A stretch of DNA of 64,000 nucleotides, taken from positions 12,232 to 76,231 of the forward strand of contig JANYCN010000077.1 of NCBI GenBank assembly GCA_025360225.1, given 5' to 3'. The position numbers and the translations under genes were made by a program. Below, piece by piece: positions 9,831 through 30,422 of this stretch. The notes under the pieces were generated by a model. It searched no databases and was not told the DNA's origin. It saw only the letters and a list, made by a program, of their open reading frames with translations. Source of the DNA: Actinomycetes bacterium. Lineage in GTDB: Bacteria > Actinomycetota > Thermoleophilia > Gaiellales > F1-60-MAGs149. Numbering within the stretch: position 1 is the first letter of the stretch; each line of letters opens with the position of its first letter.

Positions 9831-9907
9831 CTAGTGGTGTGATTGTTGGCATGGTCATTGGGTGTCAGACACCCAATGACCATGCCATTTGAGAATCAGA
9901 CCACTAG
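9831..9907. repeat. 77-nt extended palindrome/hairpin directly after the oxidoreductase stop; possible terminator or protein-binding element
   Basis: Perfect 17-bp arms GGCATGGTCATTGGGTG (9848-9864) / CACCCAATGACCATGCC (9870-9886) with a 5-nt loop. Extended by GATT/AATC and CTAGTGGT (9831-9838) / ACCACTAG (9900-9907). Only a weak T tract follows. Confidence 0.55.
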
Positions 9908-9956
9908 CAAGCCCTGCGCGAAGCGCCACGCTCCCGCTCGCTCCAGACGCCCTGTA

Positions 9957-9984
9957 ACCATGCCATTTCGCAATCGCACACTAG
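9957..9984. promoter_or_regulatory. second copy of the right-arm motif, overlapping the putative promoter of the response-regulator gene
   Basis: ACCATGCCATTT occurs at 9879-9890 and 9957-9968, and both copies continue into ..AATC..ACTAG. The second copy ends inside TAGACT (9982-9987), a TANNNT -10-like hexamer 6 nt upstream of ATG 9994. No SD is seen, which suggests a leaderless mRNA. Confidence 0.35.
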
Positions 9985-9993
9985 ACTGCGCCC

Positions 9994-10626
9994 ATGGACA
10001 GTTGCCGCGTTGTCGTGGCCGACGATCACCCGTTGTTTCGCGATGCCATGGTCGCGCTGCTCCGGGAGGTGCCCGGCGTGGAGGTAGTCGCCGAGGTGTC
10101 GTCGGGGCGCGCGGCGATCGCAGAGATTCGCGCGCGCGATCCGGACGTGGCCGTCGTTGATCTTCGGATGGCGGATGGGGACGGCGTTCACGTGTGTCGT
10201 GCTGTGACGCGTGAGGGGTTGCGCGCGCGCGTGCTCATCGTGTCGGGTTACGATGACCCAGAACTAGTCCACGCTGCGCTCGCCGCTGGGGCGCGTGGGT
10301 ACGTCGCGAAGGACAGCCCGCGCCTCGAGCTCGCGCGTGCGTTCCGCGCGGTTGCCGCCGGTGGCACGGCAGTTGGAGCTGCGCTCCTCGCCGAGGCTAC
10401 CGGCAGGCTGCGCCACGTCGAGTCCGGCCGGCCTCTCCTGTCCGGTCGCGAACGCGCCGTGCTGGCGCTTCTCGCCGAGGGCGAGAGCGCACCGGAGATC
10501 GCCCAGCGGCTTGGGCTTGCGACCAGCACGGTGAAGTCGCACCTCGCGAACATGTACGAGAAGCTCGGCGTTTCCGATCGAGCGGCGGCGGTGGCCGAGG
10601 CGATGCGTCGCGGGTTGCTCCGGTAG
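9994..10626 (+). CDS. two-component response regulator, NarL/LuxR family
   Basis: Receiver domain (VVVADDHPLFR, phospho-acceptor context VAVVDLRMADGDG) plus a LuxR HTH (ESAPEIAQRLGLATSTVKSHLANMYEKLGV). Confidence 0.88.
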   Translation: MDSCRVVVADDHPLFRDAMVALLREVPGVEVVAEVSSGRAAIAEIRARDPDVAVVDLRMADGDGVHVCRAVTREGLRARVLIVSGYDDPELVHAALAAGARGYVAKDSPRLELARAFRAVAAGGTAVGAALLAEATGRLRHVESGRPLLSGRERAVLALLAEGESAPEIAQRLGLATSTVKSHLANMYEKLGVSDRAAAVAEAMRRGLLR

Positions 10627-10631
10627 ACCGG

Positions 10632-11825
10632 ATGGCCAGCGTTCCGACGACCGACGCCGACCGCATGACGGCGACGCTCCGCCTGGTGATCGGTCCGATC
10701 GTCCTCGTAGGCGAGACGGTCGCATCGGCAGCCCCTGACCCCGGTGAGATCGTCGACGAGGACGTCGTCCTGCTCGCCGTTGGCCTCATCGTCTACGCGC
10801 TGGCCGTGCGCGTGCTCGTCCGAGGGAGAACGCGGCCGCGGGTGCTCGATCGCGTGACGCCACTTCTCGACATCGCGTTCGCCGTCGCGCTTGGCTTCGC
10901 CTCCGGCGGCCCCTTCAGCTTCCTCTCCCTCGTCTTCCTGTTCGCGCCGGCTGCAACGGCGTTCCAGCTTCGTCCCCGTCTAACGGCGCTGACCTCCGCC
11001 ATCAGCATCGCCGCCTTCTTCCTCCACGGGGCTGCGCATCCCAGCTCTGGTCGTCCGGGCGCCCTTGCCGAGCTCGTCGCCCGGACGATTTACATCTCCT
11101 GGGGTGGCGGGGTTCTCGTTGCGCTCTCCGCGCTCCTTGCACGCCGGGAAGCGCGGCTGCAGCAGGTTCTCGCGGAGCGGCGGTTGCTCGTGCGGGAGCG
11201 CCTTGGGGCAGATGACCGGGCGCGGACGAAGATCGCCCGCGACCTCCACGACGGCGTCCTTCAAAGCATCCTTGCGGTGCGCCTGACGCTGACCGCGGGT
11301 GCGGGAGACGATCGGTCGCGCGATCACCTCGTCGACGTGCTGGGCCAGGTGGTGGCCGACATGCGCGGGCTGATCGGCGAGCTACATCCGAGGGTTCTTG
11401 AGCAGGTGGGACTTCAGGCCGCGTTGACGTCGTTGCTGCGCGGTGCGGGTGAGCGGTCTCCGGGTATCGACATCGCCTCCACGCTGATCGACGACCTACC
11501 GGGTGGCCCGCACGACGAGGTGCTCTACCGAGCAGCGGTCGAGCTCGTGTCGAACGTCGCATCGCACGCTCGCGCGACGCGGATGGCGCTGTCGCTGCGC
11601 GCAGATGATGGTTGGCGCGTGCTCGTTGTCGAGGACGACGGGGTCGGGCTGGACCGCGCGACGCTTCCGGCCCGTCTCGAGGAGGGGCACATCGGGCTGC
11701 TGTCGCTTGACGAGCGCGTCCAGGCAGTGGGCGGCAACGTCGTGATGACCGCCGCCGTCGGAGGCGGACTCGTCGTGACGGTCAGCGTTCCGGTTGAACG
11801 CTCTCACAACATGTCAACTACATGA
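10632..11825 (+). CDS. membrane sensor histidine kinase, HisKA_3 type
   Basis: Several N-terminal hydrophobic segments, H-box ARDLHDGVLQS, ATPase boxes (VSNVASHA, VEDDGVGL). Starts 5 nt after the regulator gene. Confidence 0.82.
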   Translation: MASVPTTDADRMTATLRLVIGPIVLVGETVASAAPDPGEIVDEDVVLLAVGLIVYALAVRVLVRGRTRPRVLDRVTPLLDIAFAVALGFASGGPFSFLSLVFLFAPAATAFQLRPRLTALTSAISIAAFFLHGAAHPSSGRPGALAELVARTIYISWGGGVLVALSALLARREARLQQVLAERRLLVRERLGADDRARTKIARDLHDGVLQSILAVRLTLTAGAGDDRSRDHLVDVLGQVVADMRGLIGELHPRVLEQVGLQAALTSLLRGAGERSPGIDIASTLIDDLPGGPHDEVLYRAAVELVSNVASHARATRMALSLRADDGWRVLVVEDDGVGLDRATLPARLEEGHIGLLSLDERVQAVGGNVVMTAAVGGGLVVTVSVPVERSHNMSTT

Positions 11826-12312
11826 CAGGTTTGTCATAAACATGAGACGGGAATGAGCCTGGATGGCGCCCGATCCGGCCACGGTATCGCTCTTCCTCCA
11901 CTACATCCGAACGTCCTAGCAGTCGATCACCTATCGGGATCCCTCATCGTACGCTGTGAATCTGGAGGCGAAACTCATCCGAATGAAGGAGACGCGTTCC
12001 CTCATCCGGAGAGGTTCGACGCACGTTGCTGGGTGCGCGGTCACCGCGGGAGCTCGTTCGCCTCTGGTGGTCTCCCGGCGAGCTGGCGGCTCGCGGTGCA
12101 GCCGTCCCGAAACGTGGGAGGAAAATGACAGCTTGTCAGAACCTGTGGAAATCTTTCTGACAGGGATGTAGGGTGGTCTCGCTCCCTCCTCTCTCCAGAC
12201 GGGGGAAGCAAGAGACGGACATGCGGGTCGTCGGCACCACGGTGCTTGGGCGGCCTGACGGCCCCTGCGCGCCAGATCAAGGAGCAAGGCGAATGCGTAC
12301 CGGAGACCTCAC
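11822..12312 (+). promoter_or_regulatory. 487-bp AT-richer leader/promoter region of the giant-protein operon, with TGACA/TGTCA palindromes
   Basis: ATGACAGGTTTGTCAT (11822-11837); TGACAGCTTGTCA (12126-12138); TGTCAGAA (12134-12141) / TTCTGACA (12155-12162). CTCATC(C/G) occurs three times between 11943 and 12007. A run of short GC hairpins lies at 12018-12110. Confidence 0.5.
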
Positions 12313-15300
12313 ATGAGCGCGCTTGGAACGGCGAGGCGCTCGCTCCTCCTCTCGGTCGTCCTCGGCCTTCTGCTCGCCGTTCCCGTGTGGGCTGACCAGG
12401 TCAAGATCGACATGCGCGAGGGCCGAACCGTCTGGGATCCCGCGCAGCAGTCCGTTCTCGTGCATGACTTCGACACGCTCGCGGAAGGCATCGGCAACAC
12501 CCGTTGGGACGGCACCTACTACTGGACGATCCTCCACGACGTCACCTCTGACCCGTACGACTCGACCCGCCACTGCAGCCCGGCCGCTGCGTTGCTCGCG
12601 AGTCAGGGCATCAACGTCGACCACATGACGCCGGCGCAGGCGCAGGGGACCGGCGTGACCGACGCTCAGCGTGGCGCGCTGGCCGAGGCGTACGCCGCCT
12701 ACCCGGGATCGTGCAACTGGCCCTCGATTCACACGATCGCGCCGGGCGCGACGCCGTTTGCCGCGATTCTCGACCCGACGCAGCTCGATCCGACCTCCAC
12801 AGCGCAGTACGTGACGAACTCCGGGACGCAGGATGACCTGAACGCGACGAAGAGCGTCGCGAACCTCCCGGACGGGAAGTACATGATCGCCTCCTGGGCG
12901 ACGAACAAGTCCGGGAACGCGAGCTACGAGGTCGGCGGCGGCTACTTCTGGATCGCCTGCGACCCCGCGACCGCCGTCGCGACGGGGTGTGACACCACGG
13001 CGCCGGCGCCGGTCGACGTCGCCCCGCCGCGTGTCACGTACGCCGGCAACGGCGACACGTCTGGGGGAACGACCCTCGCCTTCACCGACCCGGCCTTCCC
13101 GGATCCGTCGGTTCCCGGGAAGTCGCCCGTCGGGATGGTCGTGCTCGTGACCGGCGACCCGAAGTACGCCGACTCGATGTACCTCGTCGTCGGCGCGACG
13201 AAGGTCGCCACGGGGCGCGTCGTGATCACCCTCGGTGGCACCACGACGGGTACCCCGTACGCGACGAGGTTCCCGAGCGACCTCGCGGTGCCGACGAACG
13301 TCAGCTTCGAACTGCGCAGCGCGCCCGCCAATTACAAAGACATGATGAACGTCCAGGTCTTCCAGGAGCTGAACCCGCTGCCGACTGCGACCTACCGCGT
13401 CGACGTCTTCAACGACACCTCGAAGGTGAACGGCGAGTACGACCGGCAGACGGAGATCGGCTTGAACGGCTTCAAGGCGATCCTCACGGACATCACCGGC
13501 AACGCCGTCACGATCAACTACTACGGCGACCAGATCTGCACGGAGTACGAGCCGATCTACGTGCTCGCCCACCCGACGCGCGCCTGGGACGCCGTGACGA
13601 ACCCGGTCGTCGTGCAGATGGACGCGAACCACCAGTCGGTATACCAGCTCTACGACGCTGCCAAGAACCGGCTCTACCGCACCTTCAGCGTCGCGGAGGA
13701 CTCGACCAACCGGTTCGTCGCCGACGCGCTTGGCAACCCGAAGCCCGACCTCGACACCACCGGTCAACCGTTCTTCCTCCCGGCCCAGGTGTCGGTCGGG
13801 GCCTGGCAGGACTCGGGCACGAAACCACGGCCGATCACTGGCTCGGGGGGGCTCTGCCTCTCTCACGATGTTCCCGTGAACAGCGAGACCGGCGCGCCGC
13901 TGCCGGAGATCGAGACGCGCGGGCACATCGTCATTCGCGACCTCGAACCGGGGCGCTACTCGACCCTCGTGACCCCGACGACGCAGGTCGACGGCGTGAA
14001 CGGCTCGCTCCCGTTCCATCCGACCTGGTCGCAGACGACGACGCTCGAGGGTGCCCACGACTGGGACCAGTGGCTGGTGGCAGGCGACACCGGGTACGAC
14101 CACGAGTTCGTCAATGGCACGGAGAAGGTCACGCCCGTCACCTCGGGCTGGGTCGAGCAGACCGGTGACCTTCCCGGGCTCGACCACCAGTTCACCGCGA
14201 GCAGCGCTGCGGGTGCCACGCCGTTCCCAGGCGTCGACGCGATCGGCCAGCCGATCGCGGTGAACGGCAGCACCACGACGGTGAAGAACGTCGTTGGCGC
14301 GAACGTCTCTCTCGCCGATGGAGTCGGGAGGAGCTCGGGCAGCTGGACCGTCAGCTGGCCCGTGAACTACTCCACGTCGGGGACGGTGGCGATTGCGACG
14401 ACGGCGGGGAACCCCGGCCTCGTCGCGCTCGATGGCATCCCGGCCTACGCCGTTGGTGCGAAGCTCCACCTCGGCTCCCAGACGTTCACGATCGCGACGG
14501 TGTCGGGAGACGCGCTGACGATCGTGCCCCCGCTCCCGCTGCCGCCGCCTCCGCCGCCTCCCGGCGCGACCGGCTTTCCCGCCACGATTCCCGCCGGCAC
14601 GCCGTTCACGATCGACGGGTACCTGCCGACGAGCGGACAGATCGTCCCGACGCCCGCCCTCGGCGAGATCCACGGCACCGTCAGCGACAACTTCTCCTAC
14701 ACGCAGGACCCCGTGAACGCCAACTACCTCGGCTTCGGCGACGGCGCCCAAACCGCCGTGCGGTCAGAGTCGAAGCTCGAGGTGTCGCTCGTCGATCTGA
14801 ACAACGGCGACACGATGGTCTACCAGAGGTCGTTCTTCGTCGAGGACCCGGCGAACGCCCTGAAGGCGGGGGAGTACGACATCCCGAACGTGCCCGCTGG
14901 GGACTACGAGATCTCGTTCTGGGACTTCGCCCAGAACGAGCTGCTCTTCTCGCGCAACGTTACCGTCTCGCCCGGTGAGACGGGGTCAACGAAGCGCGTT
15001 GAGCTCGACAACACGCCGCTCGTCGGGTGGTGGACGGAGATCTCCGGCTACGTCTTCGATGACCGGAACGGTAACGGCAAGCAGGACTACACCGACACGA
15101 ACCACAACGGGCACTGGGACGTCGGTGAACCGGGCGAGCCGGGGATCTCGAACTTCTTCCTCTCCGTCCGTGCCCGCGAGAACACGCTCTTCGAGCAGGG
15201 CGCGAACACTGCGACGACCGACCAGAACGGCCACTACGTGCTGCGCGCCGCCTATCCGGTTGGCCAGTGGGTCGTGCTCGAGGCCTACATGGACGGGTAC

Positions 15301-18300
15301 AAGACGACCGGGATCACGGAGCAGGCGCCGAACGAGCCACACGCGACGACGATGCTCGGCGGCGCGGTCGACGTGAACGTCCTGCCCTTCTTCTCGCAGG
15401 GCCTGACCGTCGACTGGGGCAAGCAGTCCTACGCGACTGGCGAGAACGGCGGCATCGTCGGCACCGTCAGCTACGGCACGACCCGCAACGAGACCGACCC
15501 GGCGCTCGCCGTCTTCGAGGACTGGCAGCCGGGGATCCCGAACATCTGGACGCACCTGTTCCGGCCACAGCTCGATCCGACGACAGGCAAGCCTGTGTTG
15601 GACAACAGCGCGACGCAGACAGGTTGCGACGTCTGCAGGGGCGACGGATCGGTCCTCGTCGTCGACACGGGCGGCAAGGTTGTCAACCAGCATGACGTGG
15701 TTTCCACCGTCGCCCTTGATGACGGCAACACCTACGACGTCGACAGCCTCGGCTACATCATCGATGCCGGACCCTCCTACCGCTCCGAGACGTGGCAGCG
15801 ACCGGTGGCCTGCGGTCCCGTGAACGCGGCCGATCCCGCTGGCAAGCCCCTCGCCATAGGCTCGACCTACTCTGCGGACGGGAAGAAGATCAGCTACCCG
15901 TGGATGCCGGACTTCGCGCAGTACCTTCTCGGTACCGGGGCGAACGCGACGCTCGACAACCAGAAGGGCTGCGTCGAAGGGCCTGCGGCGGCGACGAAGA
16001 TCGGGCTCGTCGATCCGACCGCGACCGACAGCCCGTGGGGCGCAACGGTGAACGGCAACTACGCGCTCGGCGACGTCTGGGATCCACTGCGCCTACCCGG
16101 AATAAACCCTGCTGCGGCCTCGGCAACGCCCGCCACGCTCGGTCGCCTCCCCCAGGGCACCTACCTCGTCAAGGTCGACCTGCCGCGCGATCGAAGCGGC
16201 AAGCCGATCCTTGAGGTCACGAAGGAAGAGGACGTCAACGTCTACACGGGGGACCACTTCACGACGCCGAGCGCGATCCACTACGACTGCGGCGGCGAGA
16301 AGCACATCGTCGACGTCGCTGGCGGCGGCGGCCCGTACACCGGCGACGCTCGGATCGGGCGCGGCGCGACCTACAACGGCGCGGTTGACAACCCCGGCCT
16401 GCTGAGCTTGCACGGCAGCCCCTACCAGGGGATGGCGAAGCCGGTCTGCGATTCCCGCATCGTCAAGGTCACGGACGGGCGCTCCGTCGCGCCGGGCTTC
16501 GAGCTCTTCACGAAAGTGCCCCTGCCGGGCGTGCACTTCGGCGTGATGATGGACGATCTCAACGTCAACGTCGACCCGGTGCACAGCTTCTACGGCGACC
16601 AGTCGACGATCCCGCACCTGCCCGTCTCCTGGTACGACTTCGCGGGCCGGCTCGTGCGACAGACGGTCACCGACCCGAACGGGTTCTACGAGGTGATGCT
16701 GCCGTCCACGAACCGGATCTCGAACCCGAGCCCGTCCGGCGTCTCCGCGCAGGCGTACACGATCGCGGCGAACGACCCGGGCTCCGTGAACGCGGCCGTC
16801 GGTCCAACGATTGCCAACCCGCGACCCACCAAGCCGAACCCTGACTTCAACCGCGCGTACCGCACGATCACGGGCGCCTTCCAGCTGTACCCGGGCGTGT
16901 CGTACGTGACCGATCTCGCCCTGTGGGGCGCCAACGTCGCGATCGACGCCCCGGGCACGCAGACGATCAAGCCGGCGCAGTGCATGCTCGACCTCGCCAC
17001 GCCGCAGCTGTTTGCGACTGACCGGGTCTGGGCGAACGCCTCAACCGGCGGCACCTTCACGCTCAGCGGCGAGGGCTTCGGGAACACCCCCGGGTCGCTG
17101 CGCCTCGTCAACGAGGACGCCGTGAGCGCTGGCCGTACCGGTAGTGTCACCTCCTACGGCTCCCGCGGAACGGTCAACTCGACCAGCGGGGGGAACCTCG
17201 ACTCGAACGTCGCCTACGCGCTTGGCGGCACGATCGTGCAGTCGGGGCTCGCAGGGACCAGTCGTGCCGGGACGATCGGAACGACCACCTCGATCCCCGT
17301 CACGGCCACCGTCTTGTCGGGCGCGGCTGACTCGATCGGCGTCGCCGCAGCTGGCCTCACAGGTCGTACCTCGGTGGGCGCAATCGTTGGCGCGGGTGTG
17401 ACAAGGACGGTAACCGTCTCCGGCGCTTCTCTCACTGCGAGCGGCCTGATCGGCGGGCGGATCGTGATCGGCGCGGTGACCGGCAACGTCACCGCGAACA
17501 CGACGACGACGATCAACTTCAACGGCGCGACCGGGACGAACCCGGCGGCGGGAACGGCGATCACCGTCTCGGCCTACAACGCGAACAACGGCGTGGTCCT
17601 GCTCTACGGCAGCCCGACGCCGACGGCCATCGTCTCAGGCATGTACCTCGCCGGCGGTGGCGTCACGGGCGTGGTTGCCTCCACGTCCAGCATCTCCGCC
17701 ACCACCGCCAGCTCGATCACGCTGCGTGCGGCGAACCCGCCCCGAACCACCGGCGAGGTTGACATCCCCTTCAGCGCCCTCGTCGGCGGATACAACGCCA
17801 ACACGACGGGCGGCGGCGGGGGCGCCACGGTCCGCACCATCTACTGGACGAATGGTCTCGCCGCCAACAGCCTCGCCGGCACGCGCGTCGCCGGTGGCGG
17901 CATTGCCGGCACAGTGTCGGCGAACACGACGAGCACCATCACCCTCGCCGCTGGCGCGACCGGCGTGAGTAACGCCACGGCCTTCTCGTTCTCGCTCGGT
18001 GGCTACAACGCAAGCACCCGCACGCTCTACACCACCAACAGCGTCGCGGGCGTGGCCCCAGGAATGTACCTGGACGGGGGCACCGTGACGGGTGCCGTTG
18101 TAAGCACCACCACCGGCGGCACGTTCAACAGCGTCACCCTCGGCACGACGAACCCGGCGCCGACCGGGGCGAGCACCGACCCGGGCCTCGCGGCCACCGT
18201 CGGCGGCTACAACGCCAGCACACGGACGCTGTTCACCACCGGGCTCACCGCCGGCGCGCTCACGGGGCTGGCGCTGAGCGCCAACGGCGGCGCGATCAAC

Positions 18301-21300: not shown

Positions 21301-22407
21301 AACGTCTCGACGCACGAGGGCGGAGGCATCGCGATCGACGACACGACGAACGTCGCGATCACCGGAAACACGATCGTCAAGAACATCACGACGGCGACCG
21401 CGATGACCTCCGACGGCGCTGCGGCTCCCGCAGGCGTCTCGGAGGGAGCGAACTCGAACCAGCTGCAGGACTGGTACGCGGCAAACCACCCGGGAACGAC
21501 GCTGCCGAAGTGGACGCCGGCGATCCTGACCAATAACGTCCTCTGGGACAACCGCGCCGGGACATACCGGAACGGCAACATCCTTGGCATCGGCGGGGCC
21601 GATGACCAGATGCCGATCAGCCACTGGGACGTCGGCTCCACCGATCCGCTCGCGACGCTCGCCGGTGGGTTCCTGTCCGGCAGCAGCTCGCTCGTTGCCA
21701 ACCTCCTCCAGGACGTCACCGGGCACGGCGACCTGAGCTACGGCGCATCGTCGGTCGACGTCTCCGGTCTCGACAACAACGGCGCGCTCGCGGGTGTCGG
21801 GAAGCTGTTCTCCGCCACCTACGACACCAGCGTCCTAACGACGCCGATGCGGGCCAACGCCCACTTCGTCTCGAACACGATCGTCGCGCTTGACTTCCCG
21901 CCGACCCGGATGGGCAACTACAAGCAGCCTGCGGGCGGCGGTCTCGAGCGGCTCGCTGGCGCGCTCCTCGGCTCGAGCCAGGCACCGGCGAGCGCCTGGG
22001 ACATCGACCACGACCCACGCTACAGCGACGTCGGCTACGACGTCGGCGCCGACCAGTACCTGGCTTCCACCGCGCCACGTATCGCTCCGCTCATGCGGCG
22101 AAGCGTGCTCTCGGTTCGGGCGACGATCACGCCGTCGGCCGTGGCGACACCCGGCACGAGCCTGGTCGGCGGGCTTGCCGCCGACCGGATCGTCGGATCC
22201 TGCGCCGGTTGCACCGCGGTCCTGCAGATCCGGCACGGGACGACGCTGCGCGCCATCCGTCTCCGCACCGTTCCCGGCGGCTTCGCCGGGTCCGTCCGGC
22301 TCGCCGCGGGCACGTACCGCTACCGCGTCGTCATCCACAACAGCAGGGCCCACCGGACGCACGTGTCCGCGTGGATCCAGATCACGAACCCGAAGGGGGC
22401 GCGATGA
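12313..22407 (+). CDS. giant (3364 aa) secreted multidomain surface protein
   Basis: Uninterrupted ORF with a Sec signal (MSALGTARRSLLLSVVLGLLLAVPVWA). Contains CnaB/SdrD-B-like segments, a PPLPLPPPPPPP linker, about 11 Thr/Gly/Ala-rich modules, an IPT/TIG-like domain and parallel beta-helix repeats. No LPXTG motif or C-terminal TM segment seen. Confidence 0.9.
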   Translation: MSALGTARRSLLLSVVLGLLLAVPVWADQVKIDMREGRTVWDPAQQSVLVHDFDTLAEGIGNTRWDGTYYWTILHDVTSDPYDSTRHCSPAAALLASQGINVDHMTPAQAQGTGVTDAQRGALAEAYAAYPGSCNWPSIHTIAPGATPFAAILDPTQLDPTSTAQYVTNSGTQDDLNATKSVANLPDGKYMIASWATNKSGNASYEVGGGYFWIACDPATAVATGCDTTAPAPVDVAPPRVTYAGNGDTSGGTTLAFTDPAFPDPSVPGKSPVGMVVLVTGDPKYADSMYLVVGATKVATGRVVITLGGTTTGTPYATRFPSDLAVPTNVSFELRSAPANYKDMMNVQVFQELNPLPTATYRVDVFNDTSKVNGEYDRQTEIGLNGFKAILTDITGNAVTINYYGDQICTEYEPIYVLAHPTRAWDAVTNPVVVQMDANHQSVYQLYDAAKNRLYRTFSVAEDSTNRFVADALGNPKPDLDTTGQPFFLPAQVSVGAWQDSGTKPRPITGSGGLCLSHDVPVNSETGAPLPEIETRGHIVIRDLEPGRYSTLVTPTTQVDGVNGSLPFHPTWSQTTTLEGAHDWDQWLVAGDTGYDHEFVNGTEKVTPVTSGWVEQTGDLPGLDHQFTASSAAGATPFPGVDAIGQPIAVNGSTTTVKNVVGANVSLADGVGRSSGSWTVSWPVNYSTSGTVAIATTAGNPGLVALDGIPAYAVGAKLHLGSQTFTIATVSGDALTIVPPLPLPPPPPPPGATGFPATIPAGTPFTIDGYLPTSGQIVPTPALGEIHGTVSDNFSYTQDPVNANYLGFGDGAQTAVRSESKLEVSLVDLNNGDTMVYQRSFFVEDPANALKAGEYDIPNVPAGDYEISFWDFAQNELLFSRNVTVSPGETGSTKRVELDNTPLVGWWTEISGYVFDDRNGNGKQDYTDTNHNGHWDVGEPGEPGISNFFLSVRARENTLFEQGANTATTDQNGHYVLRAAYPVGQWVVLEAYMDGYKTTGITEQAPNEPHATTMLGGAVDVNVLPFFSQGLTVDWGKQSYATGENGGIVGTVSYGTTRNETDPALAVFEDWQPGIPNIWTHLFRPQLDPTTGKPVLDNSATQTGCDVCRGDGSVLVVDTGGKVVNQHDVVSTVALDDGNTYDVDSLGYIIDAGPSYRSETWQRPVACGPVNAADPAGKPLAIGSTYSADGKKISYPWMPDFAQYLLGTGANATLDNQKGCVEGPAAATKIGLVDPTATDSPWGATVNGNYALGDVWDPLRLPGINPAAASATPATLGRLPQGTYLVKVDLPRDRSGKPILEVTKEEDVNVYTGDHFTTPSAIHYDCGGEKHIVDVAGGGGPYTGDARIGRGATYNGAVDNPGLLSLHGSPYQGMAKPVCDSRIVKVTDGRSVAPGFELFTKVPLPGVHFGVMMDDLNVNVDPVHSFYGDQSTIPHLPVSWYDFAGRLVRQTVTDPNGFYEVMLPSTNRISNPSPSGVSAQAYTIAANDPGSVNAAVGPTIANPRPTKPNPDFNRAYRTITGAFQLYPGVSYVTDLALWGANVAIDAPGTQTIKPAQCMLDLATPQLFATDRVWANASTGGTFTLSGEGFGNTPGSLRLVNEDAVSAGRTGSVTSYGSRGTVNSTSGGNLDSNVAYALGGTIVQSGLAGTSRAGTIGTTTSIPVTATVLSGAADSIGVAAAGLTGRTSVGAIVGAGVTRTVTVSGASLTASGLIGGRIVIGAVTGNVTANTTTTINFNGATGTNPAAGTAITVSAYNANNGVVLLYGSPTPTAIVSGMYLAGGGVTGVVASTSSISATTASSITLRAANPPRTTGEVDIPFSALVGGYNANTTGGGGGATVRTIYWTNGLAANSLAGTRVAGGGIAGTVSANTTSTITLAAGATGVSNATAFSFSLGGYNASTRTLYTTNSVAGVAPGMYLDGGTVTGAVVSTTTGGTFNSVTLGTTNPAPTGASTDPGLAATVGGYNASTRTLFTTGLTAGALTGLALSANGGAINGTVSANTPTTITLTAPTTGFSTAAAVGFSASSFNGQVVAVPANTLVAGSLVGATLVINSTSGIIASNTASSITLTANVGAATTNAVSFSVANVLVAAINTNGLAGQWVITGTTPTAFEGRILNANATAGPQRWMVIDPTSVIGTLPTAGTVFGLFNPVLPAFTPAGLAGRTLANGAVTVDLSTFTATVLTNTSTTVNLASVGTQVPPMPGLALHVRGDLTVAMNNSPFAAGTLAGLVLRRTDNSTIGTILSNTASSVVLASASLIGAIPGTGSTVYADNGVITVAGPPLVAGTLVGSLTITSGADTGFTATILGNTTSTITIDLATASPTTLPTLRPSVGDTFSVTGGQTISATATNVVWSDTSISFTIAAGVRPGPYQLYVVSANGQQTVNGVTLHLIGGVGSGYFIAPNRILEVGPGRQFDPTLAQVTGTLAGPPGAPSANGDVTVPLAESVVGDLTGLTFRVTDGAALDYTGTIRSNTATSVTLRGDALVSANPDIVPASVPAPGDTYSIRRGRGIQDAINTAAGIPSVTPEGNLGALDNSPALVVVYPGQPDMVYDPAGQSQSNVNPRGVYFENVVVPTDIKIQGVGPGGVRAAGDAVPGTVVDGSQFVIKDGGRYAVDWYNLALYAQASNGNSSPIADGSTIYELPGHTDLSPVNGAAASALGWPRTRTAGGGFATDVYTNATNAPGVVQVSGGTATTAGLGTAPLALVTDPLTVPASGTITVRYRTGGGVFGRASLFVHQFGASFKAGVDGLSIEGGDMLEFPTNLNGNGGGPLPRRVLSVGQPVTQGGGIFADMYASFLQLKNNMITGNSGSYGGAIRLGTPNVQNPSHAVGGAFTDDLSNENNDVRIANNQVNANGGGRLAGAIGIFNGADRFELARNEICGNYSAEYGAGIGVFGHSPSGVIHYNRVYFNQSLDEGAGIFIAGQLATPRPLSNQPVNGQLATVPGWSQGTGPETIDANVVQSNLANDDGGGIRFLMAGSDPQTVTNNIIANNVSTHEGGGIAIDDTTNVAITGNTIVKNITTATAMTSDGAAAPAGVSEGANSNQLQDWYAANHPGTTLPKWTPAILTNNVLWDNRAGTYRNGNILGIGGADDQMPISHWDVGSTDPLATLAGGFLSGSSSLVANLLQDVTGHGDLSYGASSVDVSGLDNNGALAGVGKLFSATYDTSVLTTPMRANAHFVSNTIVALDFPPTRMGNYKQPAGGGLERLAGALLGSSQAPASAWDIDHDPRYSDVGYDVGADQYLASTAPRIAPLMRRSVLSVRATITPSAVATPGTSLVGGLAADRIVGSCAGCTAVLQIRHGTTLRAIRLRTVPGGFAGSVRLAAGTYRYRVVIHNSRAHRTHVSAWIQITNPKGAR
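15040..15300 (+). other. SdrD-B/CnaB-like calcium-binding fold inside the giant protein
   Basis: ISGYVFDDRNGNGKQDYTDTNHNGHWDVGEPGEPGISNFFLSV...TTDQNGHYVL matches the familiar 'G.V..D.N.NG..D..E.G' SdrD B-repeat pattern. Confidence 0.6.
17446..19773 (+). repeat. protein-level array of about 11 degenerate modules within the giant protein
   Basis: Recurrent pattern L-x-G-x-x-[LVF]...G-x-[IV]-x-[SAG]-N-T-x-[ST]-[ST]-[IV]-[TV]-[LI], e.g. GTVSANTTSTITL, GTVSANTPTTITL, GIIASNTASSITL, GTILSNTASSVVL, ATILGNTTSTITI, GTIRSNTATSVTL. GGYNA(S/N)T sub-repeats are interleaved. Confidence 0.7.
19318..19503 (+). other. IPT/TIG-like Ig fold inside the giant protein
   Basis: GDTFSVTGGQTISATATNVVWSDTSISFTIAAGVRPGPYQLYVVSANGQQTVNGVTLHLIGG has the IPT/TIG beta-sandwich pattern. 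Confidence 0.5.
20681..21560 (+). other. right-handed parallel beta-helix (pectate-lyase-like) repeat region of the giant protein
   Basis: Successive turns: NNMITGNSGSYGGAIRL, NNQVNANGGGRLAGAIGIF, NEICGNYSAEYGAGIGVF, NVVQSNLANDDGGGIRF, NNIIANNVSTHEGGGIAID, TGNTIVKN, TNNVLWDN. Confidence 0.7.
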
Positions 22408-24104
22408 CCGATGCCTCGCACGTGCGGCTCAGCCGCCGGCGCCTACTCGAGCTCGGCGGTGGAGCGACCGCCGGCGCGCTCGGCGCTGGAGTCCTCGCCG
22501 AGCTCCTCCGATCGCCCGGGACGGCTCGGGCGGGCGGGCTCGGCGGCGCCTCCGGCCCGGTCCTGTCGGTCGACCAGAGGACGATCGTCCGACGCTCGCT
22601 CGCCGGCACCGATGGCTGGATCTACCTCGGCGGACCGCCCCAGCAGACGGAAGCTGGTAAGGCGTTCTTCCCGGACGACATGGCGCCGGCGCCGCAGAAC
22701 GTCTACGTCTACGGCTTTCGCGACGTCACGTCAGCCCACCTCCAGTGGAACAACCTGCAGAGCGACGGCATGCCGGCCGGGATGGACGACGCCCACAGGA
22801 CGGCCGGCCACGACGCCCTCTACGGGTTGAAGGGTCAGACGCAGAACTCGTCGGTGATCCTCTTCTTCGACGAGGGCGACCAGGTCGAGATCACGCTCTA
22901 CAACCTTGGCTGGCAGCAGCGACCGGACATCCCCGACGGCCACACGATCCACTGGCACGGTTTCCGGGACGCGATCCCCTGGTACGACGGTGTCCCGGAG
23001 ATGTCCGGCGCGGCCCCGATCAACAAGACCTTCACCTACTTCTACGACTGCCAGATCCCCGGAACCTACATGTACCACTGCCACTGGGAGGACGTCGAGC
23101 ACATCCAGATGGGCATGACCGGCGCGATCTGGATCCGCCCGAAGCAGAACCTCGGCGTCGGCTCGATCCCGCCAGGCAAGTACGTCTACAACGACGGCAA
23201 CGGGTCGACAGCCTACGACCGCGAGTACGCCTGGATGCTGATGGACTACGACCTCGAGAAGCACCAGATGATCTCGCACATCCAGCAGCCGGACTGGCAC
23301 CTCTACCAGGCCAGCGGATGGATGATCAACGGCCGTTCCTACCCTGACACGATCGAGCCGCAGGGCGTCGCCGGCATCGGCACACCGAGCGGGGACGCCA
23401 TCGCGACGGGCGTCGTCATCGACTTGCCGACCGTGACGGATGGCGCGTTCTCGATCGCCACGAGCAGCAGCGACTCCACGACGGACGTCAGCGGGCAGCT
23501 TGCCTGGGTCACGAAGGGCACGGGCGCCGGCCAGGTGATGTCGATCACGTCGGGCACGCCGAGCTCGTTCATCGTCGACAAGCTCCCCTACCAGACGCTC
23601 GTGACGGCGAAACAGACGCGCCCCGACGACGTCGCGAAGGACGCGCCGATCCTTAAGGTGGGCGACACGATCGAGTTCCACCGGCCCGGCGCGAACCTCG
23701 TCTACCAACCAAACAGCGCGCTCGTGGCGGGTAATGCCGGGGACCGGGTGCTCGTTCGCATCGCGTGTCTTGGCTACCAGGACCACTCGATGACGATCGA
23801 TGGGTTGCCGTTCCGGGTCGTCGGCCGCGACGGCGACTGGCTCGCCGACAACGAGTACCGCACCGACGTGATCGACTGTGCCCCGGGCGAGAGCTACGAC
23901 GCGATCATCACGTTGCCGGCGCACAGCGGCGGCACGGGTCCGGACGTGTACATGTTCTACGACCGCGACCTGCCGTACTACAACAACGACGACGGCACGA
24001 GCGCCAACGGGTTCAATGGCATGGCGACCGAGGTACGCGTCTTCGCGGCGGGGTCGCTGCCCTCCCAACACATCGACCTCGCCAACAGCTGGGTGAAGGG
24101 GTAA
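22404..24104 (+). CDS. Tat-exported multicopper oxidase (MCO-A) with type-1 site and two HxH pairs in the first cupredoxin domain
   Basis: ATG 22404 forms an ATGA overlap with the giant-gene stop; SD GAAGGGGG lies upstream. Twin-arginine signal SRRRLLELGGGATAGALGAG. HTIHWHG (22941-22961) and YHCHWEDVEHIQMGM (23073-23117). The C-terminal cupredoxin-like domain (VRIACLGYQDHSMTIDG...) has no HxH. Confidence 0.85.
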   Translation: MTDASHVRLSRRRLLELGGGATAGALGAGVLAELLRSPGTARAGGLGGASGPVLSVDQRTIVRRSLAGTDGWIYLGGPPQQTEAGKAFFPDDMAPAPQNVYVYGFRDVTSAHLQWNNLQSDGMPAGMDDAHRTAGHDALYGLKGQTQNSSVILFFDEGDQVEITLYNLGWQQRPDIPDGHTIHWHGFRDAIPWYDGVPEMSGAAPINKTFTYFYDCQIPGTYMYHCHWEDVEHIQMGMTGAIWIRPKQNLGVGSIPPGKYVYNDGNGSTAYDREYAWMLMDYDLEKHQMISHIQQPDWHLYQASGWMINGRSYPDTIEPQGVAGIGTPSGDAIATGVVIDLPTVTDGAFSIATSSSDSTTDVSGQLAWVTKGTGAGQVMSITSGTPSSFIVDKLPYQTLVTAKQTRPDDVAKDAPILKVGDTIEFHRPGANLVYQPNSALVAGNAGDRVLVRIACLGYQDHSMTIDGLPFRVVGRDGDWLADNEYRTDVIDCAPGESYDAIITLPAHSGGTGPDVYMFYDRDLPYYNNDDGTSANGFNGMATEVRVFAAGSLPSQHIDLANSWVKG

Positions 24105-24108
24105 CGAC

Positions 24109-25605
24109 GTGGACGCAACCACCTCTACCACCGCGCTGCGACTCCGGCTCGCCGCCCGCCCGATCCTCGCTGTCCCTGCAGCTGCCGTGCTTGTCGCCGG
24201 GGCGCTCGGCATGATGACGACCACGGCCCGTTCGATCACCCCGGTTGTCGCCCGCGACGGCATCATTGACATGTGCGACAACGGCACGCCGGCGACCGGC
24301 AACCAGCGTGTGTTCGTGCTCACGGCTCGGGATGGCGCCATCCACACCGCGGACGGCAACTCCGTGCCGATGTGGGGATTCGCCCCTGACAACGGCGCAT
24401 ACCAGTATCCGTCACCGTTCCTCTGCGCCAAGCTCGGCGAGCGGGTCAGCGTGATCTTGCACAACGCAATCACCCCGGTTCCCGTCGCGGGCACCGCGAC
24501 CGTGACGCCCGTACGAACCTCGATCATGTTCCCGGGACAGACCGGTGTCCTCGCGAGGGGCGTGTCTGCGCAGCCTGAGCTGGACGGTTCCGGGAACCTC
24601 CGGTCGCTCGTCCCGTCGATCACGAGCGGCGACTCGATCACCTACTCGTTCGTTGCGGAAAGGGCCGGATCGTTCCTCTACCAGAGCGGCACCAACGCCG
24701 CCGTCCAGGAGCAGATGGGCCTCTTCGGTGGCCTCATCGTCCGTCCAACCGGCGGACAGACCACGGCGAGCGCGACCCTCTACGACGACGCGTTGGTCAA
24801 CAGTACGGCGAACCCGAACGCGACCGATCGCTACGACCCGCAGCGAGAGTTCGTGCAGATGCTCTCCGACGTCGACGTGACGGTGCACAACAACGTCGTC
24901 GACGGCATCACCATTGACATGGCGACCCTCCGGCCTGAGTACTTCTTCATCAACGGTCGGTCGATGCCCGACACGGTCGCCCCGAACCATGCGTCGTGGT
25001 TGCCGGCACAGCCCTACAGCGCGCTCGTCCACGTGTTGCCATACGTGGCGAACGGGCCGGCGGACGGTGCGCAGATCACCGTCGGCGGCTCGACCTTCAC
25101 CTGCAAGGGGCGCTGCTATGACCCGTTGCCCGCGGCGATTCGCTACTTCAACGCCCGGGAGAAGACCTCGCCGTTCCACCCGCACGCGGCGGACACGCTG
25201 GTGCAGGGCTTCGATGGCAACCAGCTCGTCTCGCCGTCGGGCACGAACCTCTCGATCAACCACTACGTCGTCAACCTCGCGGCAGGACAGACTGCCGACG
25301 CGACGTGGCTCTGGCGTGACCAGCACGCATGGAGCCCGATCGCAACCCACCAGGGTCCGGTGCCGGTGCATGACTTCCGCGACACGCGCTACACGGGCGG
25401 CGGGAGCTGGTACGGCGGCACGCCGTATCTTGGCTACACCGATGACCTGCAGGACGGCGTCACGTCGTTCAACGAGTGCGGCGAGTACTACCACGTGGCG
25501 CACAGCCATTCGGTGAACGAGGCGACGACCTACGGCGCGGCGATGGGCGGCATGCTCACCCTTTACCGTATCGATCCCCCCGGCATGTGGAACTGCGGGC
25601 ACTGA
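24109..25605 (+). CDS. multicopper-oxidase-like protein (MCO-B); N-domain ligands lost, C-domain HxH pairs kept, type-1 Cys replaced by Ser
   Basis: GTG 24109 lies 4 nt after the MCO-A stop, with SD GAAGGGG. Hydrophobic N-terminal anchor. SIMFPG and FLYQSG sit where HxHG and YHSH are expected. FHPH (25174-25185) and HVAHSH (25492-25509) are retained. Confidence 0.8.
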   Translation: MDATTSTTALRLRLAARPILAVPAAAVLVAGALGMMTTTARSITPVVARDGIIDMCDNGTPATGNQRVFVLTARDGAIHTADGNSVPMWGFAPDNGAYQYPSPFLCAKLGERVSVILHNAITPVPVAGTATVTPVRTSIMFPGQTGVLARGVSAQPELDGSGNLRSLVPSITSGDSITYSFVAERAGSFLYQSGTNAAVQEQMGLFGGLIVRPTGGQTTASATLYDDALVNSTANPNATDRYDPQREFVQMLSDVDVTVHNNVVDGITIDMATLRPEYFFINGRSMPDTVAPNHASWLPAQPYSALVHVLPYVANGPADGAQITVGGSTFTCKGRCYDPLPAAIRYFNAREKTSPFHPHAADTLVQGFDGNQLVSPSGTNLSINHYVVNLAAGQTADATWLWRDQHAWSPIATHQGPVPVHDFRDTRYTGGGSWYGGTPYLGYTDDLQDGVTSFNECGEYYHVAHSHSVNEATTYGAAMGGMLTLYRIDPPGMWNCGH

Positions 25606-25606
25606 G

Positions 25607-28600: not shown

Positions 28601-29038
28601 GGACACGGCGACGCCTACGTCGAGGCGCCCGCCCTGAGCACCGATACCTACCGCGCATCGTTCGTGGTCGACACCAACGGCTCACGTGTCGAGGGCGCGG
28701 TGCAGGACCTTCTTCTTGGCTCGAGCGGACGCGTCCGCCTGTTCGCCATCCAACGCACGACGCGCGGACAGCTCCAGTACATCCGCCTCGTCGCTCTCGA
28801 CGGAACACGGACGAAGGTCGGCGGGTGGACGGCGACGGGCGACGACCGCCACGCCGTCAGCGTCTCCTGGTTCGCCGGCTCGTCCGGCCTGGCCGAGCTG
28901 CGGCTCGACGGCCAACTCGTCTCCCGGCTTGCGGTGCTGCGCGCCGACGCGGCCCGTCTCACGACCGTCCGGCTCGGTGCGCTCGGTGGTGCTGGTACAG
29001 GATCGATCCGCTACGACGCGTACGTCTCAACACGCTAA
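25607..29038 (+). CDS. 1143-aa secreted protein: two ligand-less cupredoxin (MCO-like) domains, Ig-like modules, C-terminal LamG/jelly-roll-like domain
   Basis: ATG lies 1 nt after the MCO-B stop. Signal-like ACTLALSLLAVTTPGALAAG. TVNLHNTHLLVPLSLTFPQ and GTFLYQAGP..MGLSGALVVEG align to MCO domain 1 without His ligands. LDTVGPDV / IDTTPPAL Ig-module starts. C-terminus is AVFADGFESRLRRW...RLDGQLV... Confidence 0.75.
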   Translation: MPHHRTPGERAVIIRRRACTLALSLLAVTTPGALAAGIGKLDPTGSGCVRSGTHLTCDLWVEPATMVVPAGFRASIPGSATDSSTTLGRLAALGYNLPTWVYAAGASEPTGPFTGTGGPTIVASEGDAVTVNLHNTHLLVPLSLTFPQIVGVRHDGRAGSDRLGVAGATVTTYTFTASSPGTFLYQAGPTVAGKRAIAMGLSGALVVEGNTGAYDLPSGAFTDEAVVLLQELDPALNLSTTPWTFDLSHFQAHLWLPNNALSGRSGGSNTVSVSANAPTLVRYVNAGLQDHWVSLLGLPQLRIAQDAQPQVNLGHGVGNANSDQSLNVTVAALPAGTTEDTIIAIPGTTPDGSAFPLYDDGNDGGTYVATDAAAVRGPGVFQNLVVATGTGTGSIAACGITGSAPLATVTGLTPLTQTVGGASLADASIAGTAVVCGSGSPASAVEYFLDDMGAPGTGTPVTMTGGTFTTTISTATLLAIDSSTTPARRALPHRVWFRANNGSAWGELSSAEIVLDTVGPDVKRISTDPTISNGTTSVHVWVSGDETTTGNTVVTGFAWSIAGATDAACASTVGIPTINQAPEVDLQFDIPVACTSTLGEGNHLLSIVATDHYGNATAAGGMNDPNTYTVAIDTTPPALVRTAGLVRVPAGPDTPGSPYPGDTTAVAVQVLQRLPYDAQNPTGVFGGPFTNWNNGTLPWELNTHELGVRASASDPTTTGVRSGVAAMYGSFDPAFCSTADPAGVGARLDAQGGRFHEPAIGFQYIPLAQLAQYTKLSAASSTDATYPGVRVAYYVRVVDTAGNWSACPHTYDVALDASAGTQRDEMAADPLTGSLIVAIGGDFAVGSLQLPKITAGNRAVFASSPRHTTINVTLRLDAATRGEGNGVTGAEWFDGHDPGVGNGVQFSLVSGQWGAVTANLVSTVSTVRWTPGVHVIAARVRDRAGNWSALTTARFSVSPRAVFADGFESRLRRWAHRQGVAVTSAAALVGRLGLAVTTGHGDAYVEAPALSTDTYRASFVVDTNGSRVEGAVQDLLLGSSGRVRLFAIQRTTRGQLQYIRLVALDGTRTKVGGWTATGDDRHAVSVSWFAGSSGLAELRLDGQLVSRLAVLRADAARLTTVRLGALGGAGTGSIRYDAYVSTR

Positions 29039-29045
29039 TCACCCA

Positions 29046-29657
29046 ATGCGACGGGCCGACTGCATGGGGAAGGGGCTCCGTTTCCGGGTCACACCGGAGC
29101 GGGGCCCCGGTCGGCCGCTCATCACGACGAACCCGAGCCGGAAGGCCGCCGTGTCTCACATCGGAGCTCCGTCGTTCCCGAGTGGTTCGCGGCAGGTTCT
29201 CGCGGCCCTTGCGCTTGCGCTTCTCGGCTCCGTCGCGGTCTTCACCGGCGCGCAGCGGCTCGTCCAGCCGGTCATGGGCCCGCGGACGTTCGGTCCGGGC
29301 GCGACTCATGGCGGCACCATGCCGCATTCGCAGGCCATCGAGGCAACCTATGGCGTCGAGTTCTACCAGGTCGGACTGTCGGGGGACGGTGGGCTCGTCG
29401 ACGTGCGCTTTCGCGTGCTCGACGCGTCACGTGCCGCTCCGGTTCTGGGCCATCAGGCGACGATCAAGATGGTGGTCGGAAACGAGCGCACCCGTTCGCT
29501 GTTCGACACCCGAGCGATGACGCCGGGTGAGTCGAACCTCGTTGCCGGGCAATCCTACTGGGTGCTGTTCCGCAATGCCGGCGGCGACATCACGCGCGGC
29601 GACCGCGTCGACATCTTCGTCGGCGCCTTACATCTCGATGGTGTTCTTGTTCAGTAG
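29046..29657 (+). CDS. small membrane-anchored protein with a His/Met motif (THGGTMPH); last gene of the operon
   Basis: Same strand, 7 nt after the preceding stop. One hydrophobic segment (VLAALALALLGSVAVF) then a domain of about 130 aa. Alternative starts: ATG 29064, or GTG 29151 (preceded by GGAAGG). GC3 is coding-like from 29046. Confidence 0.55.
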   Translation: MRRADCMGKGLRFRVTPERGPGRPLITTNPSRKAAVSHIGAPSFPSGSRQVLAALALALLGSVAVFTGAQRLVQPVMGPRTFGPGATHGGTMPHSQAIEATYGVEFYQVGLSGDGGLVDVRFRVLDASRAAPVLGHQATIKMVVGNERTRSLFDTRAMTPGESNLVAGQSYWVLFRNAGGDITRGDRVDIFVGALHLDGVLVQ

Positions 29658-30230: not shown

Positions 30231-30422
30231 CTACAGGGCCTTCTGGACCTTGCCGCCCTTGAGGCAGCGGGCGCAGACGTACGCGCGCTTCTGCACGCCG
30301 TCGACGATGATGCGGACACGCTGCAGGTTCGGATCGAACCGGCGCTTCGTGGCGACCATCGAGTGGCTCCGGTTGTTACCGAAGGAAGGCTTGCGATCAC
30401 AGACGGAGCAGACGCGGGACAT
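30231..30422 (-). CDS. rpmB: 50S ribosomal protein L28
   Basis: [38 protein letters not shown] is a typical L28. Confidence 0.92.

Follow-up and report, generated by a model that had tools for sequence, protein, structure and literature searches.

The block at positions 9994-29657 of the 64-kb window (the whole stretch of DNA that was analysed, 64,000 nucleotides of contig JANYCN010000077.1 from an Actinomycetes bacterium) encodes a two-component pair, a giant secreted protein, three proteins related to multicopper oxidases (MCOs), here named MCO-A, MCO-B and MCO-C, and a small membrane protein. An earlier note on this DNA had described the metal sites of the three MCO-like proteins as differentially eroded. 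Joint alignment of the three families confirmed that the ligands differ, but what had been taken for erosion proved to be a strict division of one MCO active site into two complementary parts, one kept by MCO-A and the other by MCO-B. This partition points to a heteromeric enzyme and not to three decaying oxidases, and an A/B/C oxidase operon with a split site is, with good probability, the best explanation of the block.

On balance, and with less assurance, we favour the further reading that two different gene products share the catalytic trinuclear cluster, which would make this the first natural MCO of that kind. As an obligate heterotrimer of A, B and C with a single active site, the enzyme would represent, in living organisms and without fusion, the intermediate that has been postulated between two-domain trimers and six-domain MCOs such as ceruloplasmin. 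More than 500 species in Actinomycetota and Chloroflexota would encode it, in each case together with an uncharacterised surface protein of ~1800-3400 amino acids (aa), and its expression would probably be copper-responsive.

Division of the copper ligands between MCO-A and MCO-B

Ligands were counted in a joint alignment of 79 MCO-A, 74 MCO-B and 59 MCO-C sequences from about 80 loci. Each of the three chains carries two cupredoxin domains, as two-domain MCOs do, and all three are matched by the Pfam family Cu-oxidase_3; MCO-A is also matched by Cu-oxidase_2 and Cu-oxidase. Among solved structures, MCO-A is closest to 3g5w and 2zwn, both of them two-domain MCOs. Its type-1 copper ligands H180, C226, H233 and M238 are present in 79/79 family members, and H183, H185, H225 and H227 in the same domain are trinuclear-cluster histidines. 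All eight domain-1 ligands occur in every one of the 79 MCO-A proteins, in practically none of the 74 MCO-B and in none of the 59 MCO-C. The four histidines of domain 2 are kept in 74/74, 74/74, 73/74 and 73/74 MCO-B, respectively, and are found in 0/79 MCO-A and 0/59 MCO-C; in MCO-A their positions are occupied by T, D, Y and R (R in 78/79).

Profile comparisons gave the same picture of the folds. Against the PDB, the MCO-B profile matched the two-domain MCOs 3g5w and 2zwn, with its HxH motifs on their domain-2 HSH and HDH, and ceruloplasmin was also among its matches. Comparison of the MCO-A and MCO-B families by hhalign gave a probability of 99.9 and placed T-I-D of MCO-A opposite H-P-H of MCO-B. 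MCO-C has a core of two cupredoxin domains without ligands (aa ~40-350), and its N-terminal ~300 aa are of the NirK/two-domain-MCO type (E values of 1e-17 to 1e-20 for its profile against NirK and two-domain MCOs). The core is followed by Big_13-type immunoglobulin-like (Ig) repeats and then by a C-terminal domain that matches no family. An identity of MCO-A as NirK was rejected, since it has the HxH and HCH of MCO type and reaches 27 bits against the cut-off of 296 of the NCBIfam model Cu_nitrite_red. NirK itself binds type-2 copper by two His of domain 1 and one His from domain 2 of the neighbouring chain, and has no HxH pairs. Between its cupredoxin domains MCO-A carries an insert of ~110 residues (aa ~320-430, positions 23361-23693), which was seen only in its closest relatives (P0002, P0004, P0006, P0010 and P0012) and not in the majority form of ~420 aa.

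Solved two-domain MCOs are trimers whose trinuclear cluster is assembled where domain 1 of one chain meets domain 2 of the next. The literature agrees in placing the trinuclear cluster of the two-domain MCO trimer between adjacent chains (PMC11761707), and a published evolutionary scheme is consistent with a cluster built at the interfaces of such trimers (PMC3600357). None of the three chains holds all eight cluster histidines; only MCO-A and MCO-B together do. Because of this partition, no cluster could be formed by A or B alone, while the full set would be brought together at the interface of domain 1 of A with domain 2 of B. As the known trimers build their cluster across domains 1 and 2 of adjacent chains, we infer an A/B/C heterotrimer with one active site.

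It could also be argued that there is no single enzyme, and that MCO-A is a type-1 electron-transfer protein with a vestigial half-site while MCO-B and MCO-C are decayed paralogues with a structural or copper-binding role. The lack of a full ligand set in any chain and the clearly non-catalytic nature of the ligand-less MCO-C would fit this explanation, and ligand-less paralogues exist in other MCO lineages, such as factor V without conserved copper ligands (PMC3600357). Decay, however, would not preserve four cluster histidines in 79/79 MCO-A and 73-74/74 MCO-B across two phyla, and fusions of B with C as well as tight A-B and B-C junctions, both described below, also speak against it, so that we consider it very unlikely. 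The absolute retention of both half-sites across the two phyla argues for purifying selection on a shared site.

Fusion proteins of MCO-B and MCO-C

A search with MCO-B against 1.8 billion representative proteins gave 94 matches at E <= 1e-30. In two proteins, P0307 (884 aa) and P0321 (1156 aa), a B-type unit is followed in frame by a C-type two-domain unit, as read from the protein sequences, and the order of the units is the same as the order of the genes B and C. The B-type unit carries both HxH motifs and shares 37% identity with MCO-B over its full length, while the C-type unit shares 33% identity with residues 94-358 of MCO-C. These two natural B-C fusion proteins support the proposed A/B/C heterotrimer. 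Only such four-domain B-C fusions were seen elsewhere; in the window the three genes are separate, with stop codons between them.

Between the two units of P0307 and P0321 lies a small, basic and β-rich linker domain, which resembles the C-terminal ~90 residues of the giant protein of the window. Other candidate fusions were rejected. P0299, P0347 and P0443 are frameshift read-throughs in which the C-terminus of MCO-B is out of frame. A fusion of the giant protein with MCO-A in locus L022 (4844-11221, a single open reading frame (ORF) in a long-read metagenome bin) was not trusted because the giant gene of that locus is frameshifted elsewhere; an indel at the ATGA overlap has probably produced it as an artefact.

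Distribution of the cassette

With the proteins of the window, 80 genomic loci and three others were mapped; many of these are metagenome bins, and start codons were chosen heuristically. Homologues of MCO-A number more than 1400 in the protein collection. Relatives occur in at least 566 species genomes, mostly of Actinomycetota and Chloroflexota, with rare cases in Ideonella and in bins of Anaeromyxobacteraceae. The genes for the giant protein, MCO-A, MCO-B, MCO-C and the small protein stand in the same order and on one strand at every locus with enough flanking DNA. The gaps fall within -20 to +40 nucleotides (nt) in 66/73 loci for A-B and 70/73 loci for B-C, with a 4-nt overlap as the commonest arrangement. 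The earlier note would have taken MCO-like genes that usually occur without the giant gene in relatives as a refutation of its idea. This was not the pattern found: the giant gene was present with the MCO trio wherever the upstream DNA was reached.

The block of the window is a variant copy of a six-gene cassette present in more than 500 species, and it is without the usual CopCD and OmpR-type pair. Elsewhere the cassette is found in other genomic contexts than that of the window. In assembly GCA_043763365.1, the contig JAYULQ010000136.1 (locus L001) encodes an MCO-B identical to that of the window. A second, divergent cassette lies on contig JAYULQ010000098.1 of the same assembly (L084), with an MCO-A of 51% identity and followed by CopC-CopD; the organism or bin thus seems to carry two paralogous cassettes. 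The public names of the cassette proteins are generic ('multicopper oxidase domain-containing', 'SdrD B-like domain-containing', 'hypothetical'), and no description of the giant-A-B-C-small system was found in the full-text literature, in line with the earlier note, which had recognised no described system.

Giant surface protein

Domain searches of all five products of the operon gave Cu-oxidase_3 in the three MCO-like proteins, weak SdrD_B and Beta_helix matches in the giant protein and none in the small protein; NCBIfam gave no equivalog for any of the five. The giant protein has a Sec-type signal, tandem β-sandwiches of the SdrD-B, CnaB and prealbumin types, a TIG domain and a right-handed β-helix. 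On its own it gave weak Pfam matches to SdrD_B, Beta_helix and NosD, whereas its family (n=23) was matched by SdrD_B (23/23), CarboxypepD_reg (19), TIG (17) and Beta_helix (17), and also by fn3_3 and SpaA. No LPXTG motif, no terminal membrane segment or C-terminal anchor and no heme motif were found in it. The conserved parts comprise residues ~350-620, ~780-1620 and ~2740-3250. An AlphaFold2 model of residues 780-1620 reached a predicted local distance difference test (pLDDT) score of 62, and the Foldseek matches of its confident parts to SdrD, Gram-positive pilins and TIE proteins are only indicative because of this low value. The giant protein looks like an adhesin or stalk.

Homologues elsewhere are mostly ~1750-2300 aa long, and the giant protein of the window is twice the usual size because of a lineage-specific repeat insert. 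The ~1800-aa homologues have no such Thr-rich insert, which probably serves as a spacer or stalk. No exact tandem array was found in it by Tandem Repeats Finder. At 17469-19261 it contains six diverged copies of ~47 nt, irregularly spaced (183-744 nt), which encode G-x-[IV]-x-G-[TN]-V-[ST]-A-N-T-T-[ST]-T-I.

Following the idea of the earlier note, an oxidase complex displayed on the giant scaffold or cross-linking it, the coupling of this protein to the oxidase genes could mean that the oxidase acts on the giant protein, for instance by Tyr-Tyr cross-linking, or sits on it as a scaffold, giving a hardened or catalytic surface layer. The giant gene always lies directly 5' of the MCO-A gene, with a 4-nt stop/start overlap in 19/76 loci, its product has β-sandwiches of the pilin and adhesin type, and export signals are predicted for all products of the operon. 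On the other hand, the junction from the giant gene to MCO-A is tight in only 37/76 loci by a heuristic criterion, and neither a sortase signal nor a conserved Tyr-rich or Lys-rich target region was found in the giant protein. Such a role would also leave the linkage to CopCD and the CusR-box-like operator, both described below, unexplained, and we regard it as quite unlikely.

Small membrane protein

The family of the small protein comprises 101 detected members, all named 'hypothetical' and none with a Pfam or NCBIfam model. Its AlphaFold2 model (pLDDT 81) shows one membrane helix and a small extracytoplasmic Ig-like β-sandwich, and has no PDB match at E<0.001. The conserved residues of the family are Gly, Asp, Tyr and Asn. 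About three quarters of the members have a Met and two His in common, with a further His in 56%; this Met/His set in the β-sandwich could be a copper site. The window copy has T159, S163, G199 and T139 at those positions (nt 29460-29642), and the whole set has been lost in the clade that includes the window, L001 and L004. The earlier designation as a small His/Met protein was therefore given up, as none of the His, Met and Cys of the window copy is conserved; a His/Met copper chaperone was rejected in favour of a predicted membrane-anchored, generic Ig-like sandwich.

Regulation and copper context

Flanking ORFs were clustered over the related loci to find conserved neighbours. A divergent OmpR-type regulator turned up in 49 loci, 44-47 loci encode a HisKA kinase, and a copper transporter, a fusion of CopC with CopD, is encoded directly 3' of the cassette in 47/55 eligible loci. 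Two extra upstream genes and one downstream gene that appeared to be conserved (35, 29 and 35 loci) were rejected as antisense shadow ORFs of the regulator, the kinase and CopCD, without Pfam matches. A secreted S8 subtilase with an I9 propeptide is situated 3' of the cassette in 13-20 loci (e.g. L005, L006, L023, L028 and L037) and could be a maturation protease. CopCD, the OmpR-type pair and the subtilase are all absent from the whole 64-kb window, which has a NarL-type pair in their stead, like several Chloroflexia loci.

In the 487-nt leader between the end of the kinase gene and the start of the giant gene, two palindromes were identified (Table 1), with an additional TGACAG half-site at 12158. 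The sequence TGACAG-N(1-2)-TTGTCA occurs only twice in the 64 kb, both times in this leader, where 0.03 would be expected by chance. No riboswitch or other RNA was found in the leader at Rfam gathering thresholds. In 64 loci, the motif was counted from -350 to +150 nt relative to the giant ORF, with dinucleotide-constrained shuffles as the control. TGACRG-NN-CYGTCA was perfect in 8/64 loci compared to 0.42 in the shuffles, and matched at >=11/12 positions in 25/64 loci compared to 3.5 (maximum 7). Its core and spacing are those of the CusR and pcoE boxes: in E. coli the CusR box (AAAATGACAAnnTTGTCATTTT) and the pcoE box (TGACAAnnTTGTCAT) are located between a divergent OmpR-type pair and the target operon (PMC11195947). 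The palindromes upstream of the giant gene suggest copper-responsive control, and given the CusR-box-like palindrome between the divergent OmpR-type pair and the cassette, expression is probably copper-responsive.

The same evidence bears on the idea of a laccase-like oxidase for organics (phenolics, humics, plant-wall polymers), with the giant β-helix/Ig protein as its polymer-docking module. In the giant family, the matches to a β-helix, to fn3_3 (a domain of polysaccharide lyase family 4) and to TIG are of a type characteristic for carbohydrate-active proteins; most hosts are soil members of Actinomycetota and Chloroflexota; and two-domain MCOs such as 2zwn are laccases. However, no carbohydrate-active catalytic family was detected, and no catabolic genes were conserved as neighbours among the clusters of flanking ORFs. 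The linkage to CopCD and the CusR-like box favour copper over carbon metabolism, although CopCD might just supply the cofactor. An oxidase dedicated to organics with a docking protein is thus judged unlikely.

At the NarL-type pair of the window, a 32-nt direct repeat (9866-9897 and 9944-9975, 78-nt spacing) lies 5' of the regulator gene, and its first copy overlaps the perfect palindrome at 9847-9887. The sequence ACCATGCCATTT is found exactly only at those two repeat places in the window. Together, the repeat and the palindrome are a candidate autoregulatory operator of the two-component pair.

Proposed enzyme and its significance

In the split-site oxidase, MCO-A would be exported by the twin-arginine translocation (Tat) route, and its domain 1 would hold the type-1 copper, where electrons enter from the substrate, together with four of the eight cluster histidines. 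Domain 2 of MCO-B would give the remaining four. MCO-C, as a ligand-less paralogue, would close the three-membered ring and serve as a structural subunit with an Ig-domain arm. In the simplest closed assembly, six cupredoxin domains would form a ring holding a single type-1 copper and a single trinuclear cluster, the latter situated between domain 1 of A and domain 2 of B. From the type-1 copper of MCO-A, electrons would travel over the Cys-His bridge and reach the cluster that MCO-A and MCO-B share, where O2 would be reduced to water. The giant protein, produced together with the oxidase, probably positions or retains it in the envelope or binds its target, and the small protein probably acts as a membrane tether or in assembly. 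CopCD, where present, may handle the copper cofactor, and expression of the cassette would respond to copper.

The system is probably part of copper homeostasis, in which it would serve cofactor supply or, at the cell surface, oxidise Cu(I) or some other metal ion. As the substrate, a metal ion (Cu(I), Fe(II) or Mn(II)) is tentatively placed first; phenolic or polymeric organics are possible at somewhat lower probability, and the giant protein itself would be an improbable substrate.

Several points weigh against this picture. Gene order, coupling, folds, the ligand partition, the B-C fusions and the motif enrichment are read from the sequences themselves, while the heterotrimer, the copper regulation and the localisation in the envelope are all inferred, the heterotrimer from sequence logic. 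MCO-A has a Tat signal while MCO-B and MCO-C have hydrophobic N-termini of their own, so that assembly and copper loading would have to take place after export or by another route. The Met-rich segment known from cuprous oxidases is missing from MCO-A. For the association of the giant protein with the oxidase, the support is limited to gene order, with the frequent start/stop overlap. The copper link is weakest for the window copy itself, because it has the NarL-type pair instead of CopCD and the OmpR-type pair. In the relatives, the OmpR-type regulators reach 161 bits where the cut-off of the NCBIfam heavy-metal subfamily is 279, and the consensus of the degenerate motif was refined on the same loci that were used for counting it.

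MCOs are textbook enzymes, including laccases, ceruloplasmin, CueO and Mn oxidases, and hypothetical intermediates have served to argue how six-domain single chains evolved out of two-domain trimers. If the split site is real, the cassette would offer an actual example of subfunctionalisation after duplication and before fusion, and a new quaternary design for the MCO family. It would also mean that the annotation 'multicopper oxidase domain-containing protein' conceals non-autonomous subunits. In addition, it would draw attention to a cassette that is common in soil Actinomycetota and Chloroflexota and that combines the giant surface protein with CopCD and with a small membrane protein of a new family. 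The new element would be the split-site heteromeric MCO inside an uncharacterised conserved cassette.

Gene layout and flanking regions

Every gene of the block lies on the + strand (Table 1). The layout given in the earlier note, a two-component pair before five packed genes with junctions of -4 (ATGA), +4, +1 and at most 25 nt, was found to be correct, and its view of one tightly coupled operon of exported proteins agrees with the gaps, overlaps and N-terminal signals seen in the sequence. The stop codon of the giant gene and the ATG of the MCO-A gene overlap as ATGA at 22404-22407. The TAA of MCO-A is followed after 4 nt by the GTG of MCO-B, and the TGA of MCO-B after 1 nt by the ATG of MCO-C, for which the public gene call begins 33 nt further on. 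From the TAA of MCO-C to the ATG of the small gene there are 7 nt (start at 29046) or 25 nt (start at 29064, the one used in the public protein P0171). Purine runs resembling GGAGG precede the starts of MCO-A and MCO-B. An N-terminal hydrophobic segment is present in the giant protein, MCO-B, MCO-C and the small protein each, and the twin-arginine motif SRRRLLE that had been noted in MCO-A stands at residues 10-16, with R11 and R12 invariant across the family. No CxxCH heme motif occurs in any product, and a heme or cytochrome partner was rejected on this basis. The response regulator had no NCBIfam equivalog at cut-off, and the kinase has ~5 N-terminal membrane segments by hydropathy and is without an extracytoplasmic sensor domain.

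Table 1. Position of the genes, protein regions and repeated elements in the window
Feature	Position	Strand	Evidence or remark
Perfect palindrome of 20+20 nt with 1-nt spacer	9847..9887		5' of regulator gene, in 182-nt gap
NarL/LuxR-type response regulator (receiver domain and GerE helix-turn-helix)	9994..10626	+	Pfam Response_reg 8.7e-23, GerE 2.1e-17
HisKA_3 histidine kinase	10632..11825	+	Pfam HisKA_3, HATPase_c; hydropathy
Palindrome TGACAGGTTTGTCA	11823..11836		11/12 positions of E. coli CusR box core (TGACAAnnTTGTCA)
Second palindrome TGACAGCTTGTCA	12126..12138		~175 nt 5' of giant ATG
Giant secreted protein, 3364 aa	12313..22407	+	Pfam, ORF calls, family alignment
Giant protein, most conserved core (aa 780-1620), with many invariant residues and cysteines	14650..17172	+	Family alignment
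Giant protein, Thr/Gly/Ala/Ser-rich, nearly uncharged insert with degenerate repeats (aa ~1620-2400)	17173..19512	+	Repeat families D1-D5
Giant protein, conserved β-helix region (aa 2740-3250)	20530..22062	+	Beta_helix 28.4 bits vs 25.9 cut-off, segment scanned alone
MCO-A, 566 aa, Tat signal, two cupredoxin domains	22404..24104	+	Pfam, structure-based alignment, family alignment
MCO-A ligand motifs HTIHWHG (aa 180-186) and HCHWEDVEHIQMGM (aa 225-238)	22941..23117	+	Invariant in 79/79; align to domain 1 of 3g5w and 2zwn
MCO-B, 498 aa, N-terminal hydrophobic signal or anchor	24109..25605	+	Profile comparison, family alignment
MCO-B FHPH (H357, H359)	25174..25185	+	Kept in 74/74; aligns to AMHSHG of 2zwn
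MCO-B HVAHSH (H465, H467)	25492..25509	+	Kept in 73/74; aligns to IFHDH of 2zwn
MCO-C, 1143 aa	25607..29038	+	Profile vs NirK and two-domain MCOs, Pfam
Small protein, 203 aa (197 aa from 29064)	29046..29657	+	ORF call, AlphaFold2 model

The G+C content of the window is ~70%, and is lower in the block (0.66-0.69) than outside it (0.70-0.72). The block had been called accessory, which is only partly shown: the slightly lower GC and the other contexts of the cassette elsewhere agree with the term, but no flanking direct repeats were found at the block boundaries, and neither mobility genes nor plasmid copies or homologues were found. The flanks had been described as housekeeping genes, which holds for ribBA and ribH on the left and for rpmB (30231-30422, - strand) and then yloV on the right. 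The gene directly left of the block (8873-9811), included in this left flank, is FabK/NPD-like (TIGR03151, 160 bits, under its cut-off) and not a riboflavin gene, as the gene list of the earlier note would imply. A dCMP-deaminase/ComEB-like gene (29651-30220, - strand) had been overlooked; it comes before rpmB, directly after the small gene, with whose end it shares 7 nt, and is oriented convergently with the operon.

Comparison with known systems

The closest known enzymes are the homotrimeric two-domain MCOs, represented by the Nitrosomonas europaea blue copper oxidase (3g5w) and the metagenomic laccase mgLAC (2zwn). They share with the MCO-like proteins of the cassette the two cupredoxin domains per chain; HxxHxH and HCH...H...M of MCO-A fall on their domain 1 and the two HxH of MCO-B on their domain 2, and the cluster is likewise expected at a chain-chain interface. 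In 3g5w and 2zwn, however, all twelve ligands belong to the same chain, and the trimer of identical chains has three active sites, whereas here the ligands are spread over two paralogues, the third is ligand-less, and a ring would have at most one site. A further difference is the Ig-like part of MCO-C, which adds ~800 residues. That the ligands are partitioned speaks against a functional homotrimer.

As in the proteobacterial copABCD and pcoABCD systems with copRS/pcoRS, and in cusRS, the cassette of the relatives combines an MCO with CopC/CopD and a divergent OmpR-type pair, and the palindromic operator core TGACAx-NN-xTGTCA is similar. PcoA/CopA, in contrast, is a three-domain, single-chain MCO. 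The cassette has no CopB/PcoB outer-membrane protein, and the proteobacterial systems have no giant protein. CopC and CopD are fused in the relatives that carry them, and the window copy is without both CopCD and the OmpR-type pair.

The giant protein shares the tandem SdrD-B, CnaB and prealbumin-type β-sandwiches with Gram-positive adhesins of the MSCRAMM (microbial surface components recognizing adhesive matrix molecules) type and with pilins (SdrD, SpaA, Spy0128, TIE proteins). It differs from them in having no LPXTG and no recognisable ligand-binding A-domain, and in its C-terminal β-helix and its genetic coupling to an oxidase.

In the six-domain MCOs, ceruloplasmin (1kcw/2j5w) and MnxG of the Bacillus Mnx complex, the six cupredoxin domains make up a pseudo-threefold ring that has a single cluster, an architecture which the ligands suggest for the A/B/C assembly as well. 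According to the published scheme, they keep the cluster at one of three equivalent interfaces while the others are degenerate (PMC3600357). Ceruloplasmin and MnxG are single polypeptides that arose by triplication and fusion, whereas the cassette has three genes apart, with B and C fused in some relatives; and where ceruloplasmin has three type-1 sites, the A/B/C ring is predicted to have one.

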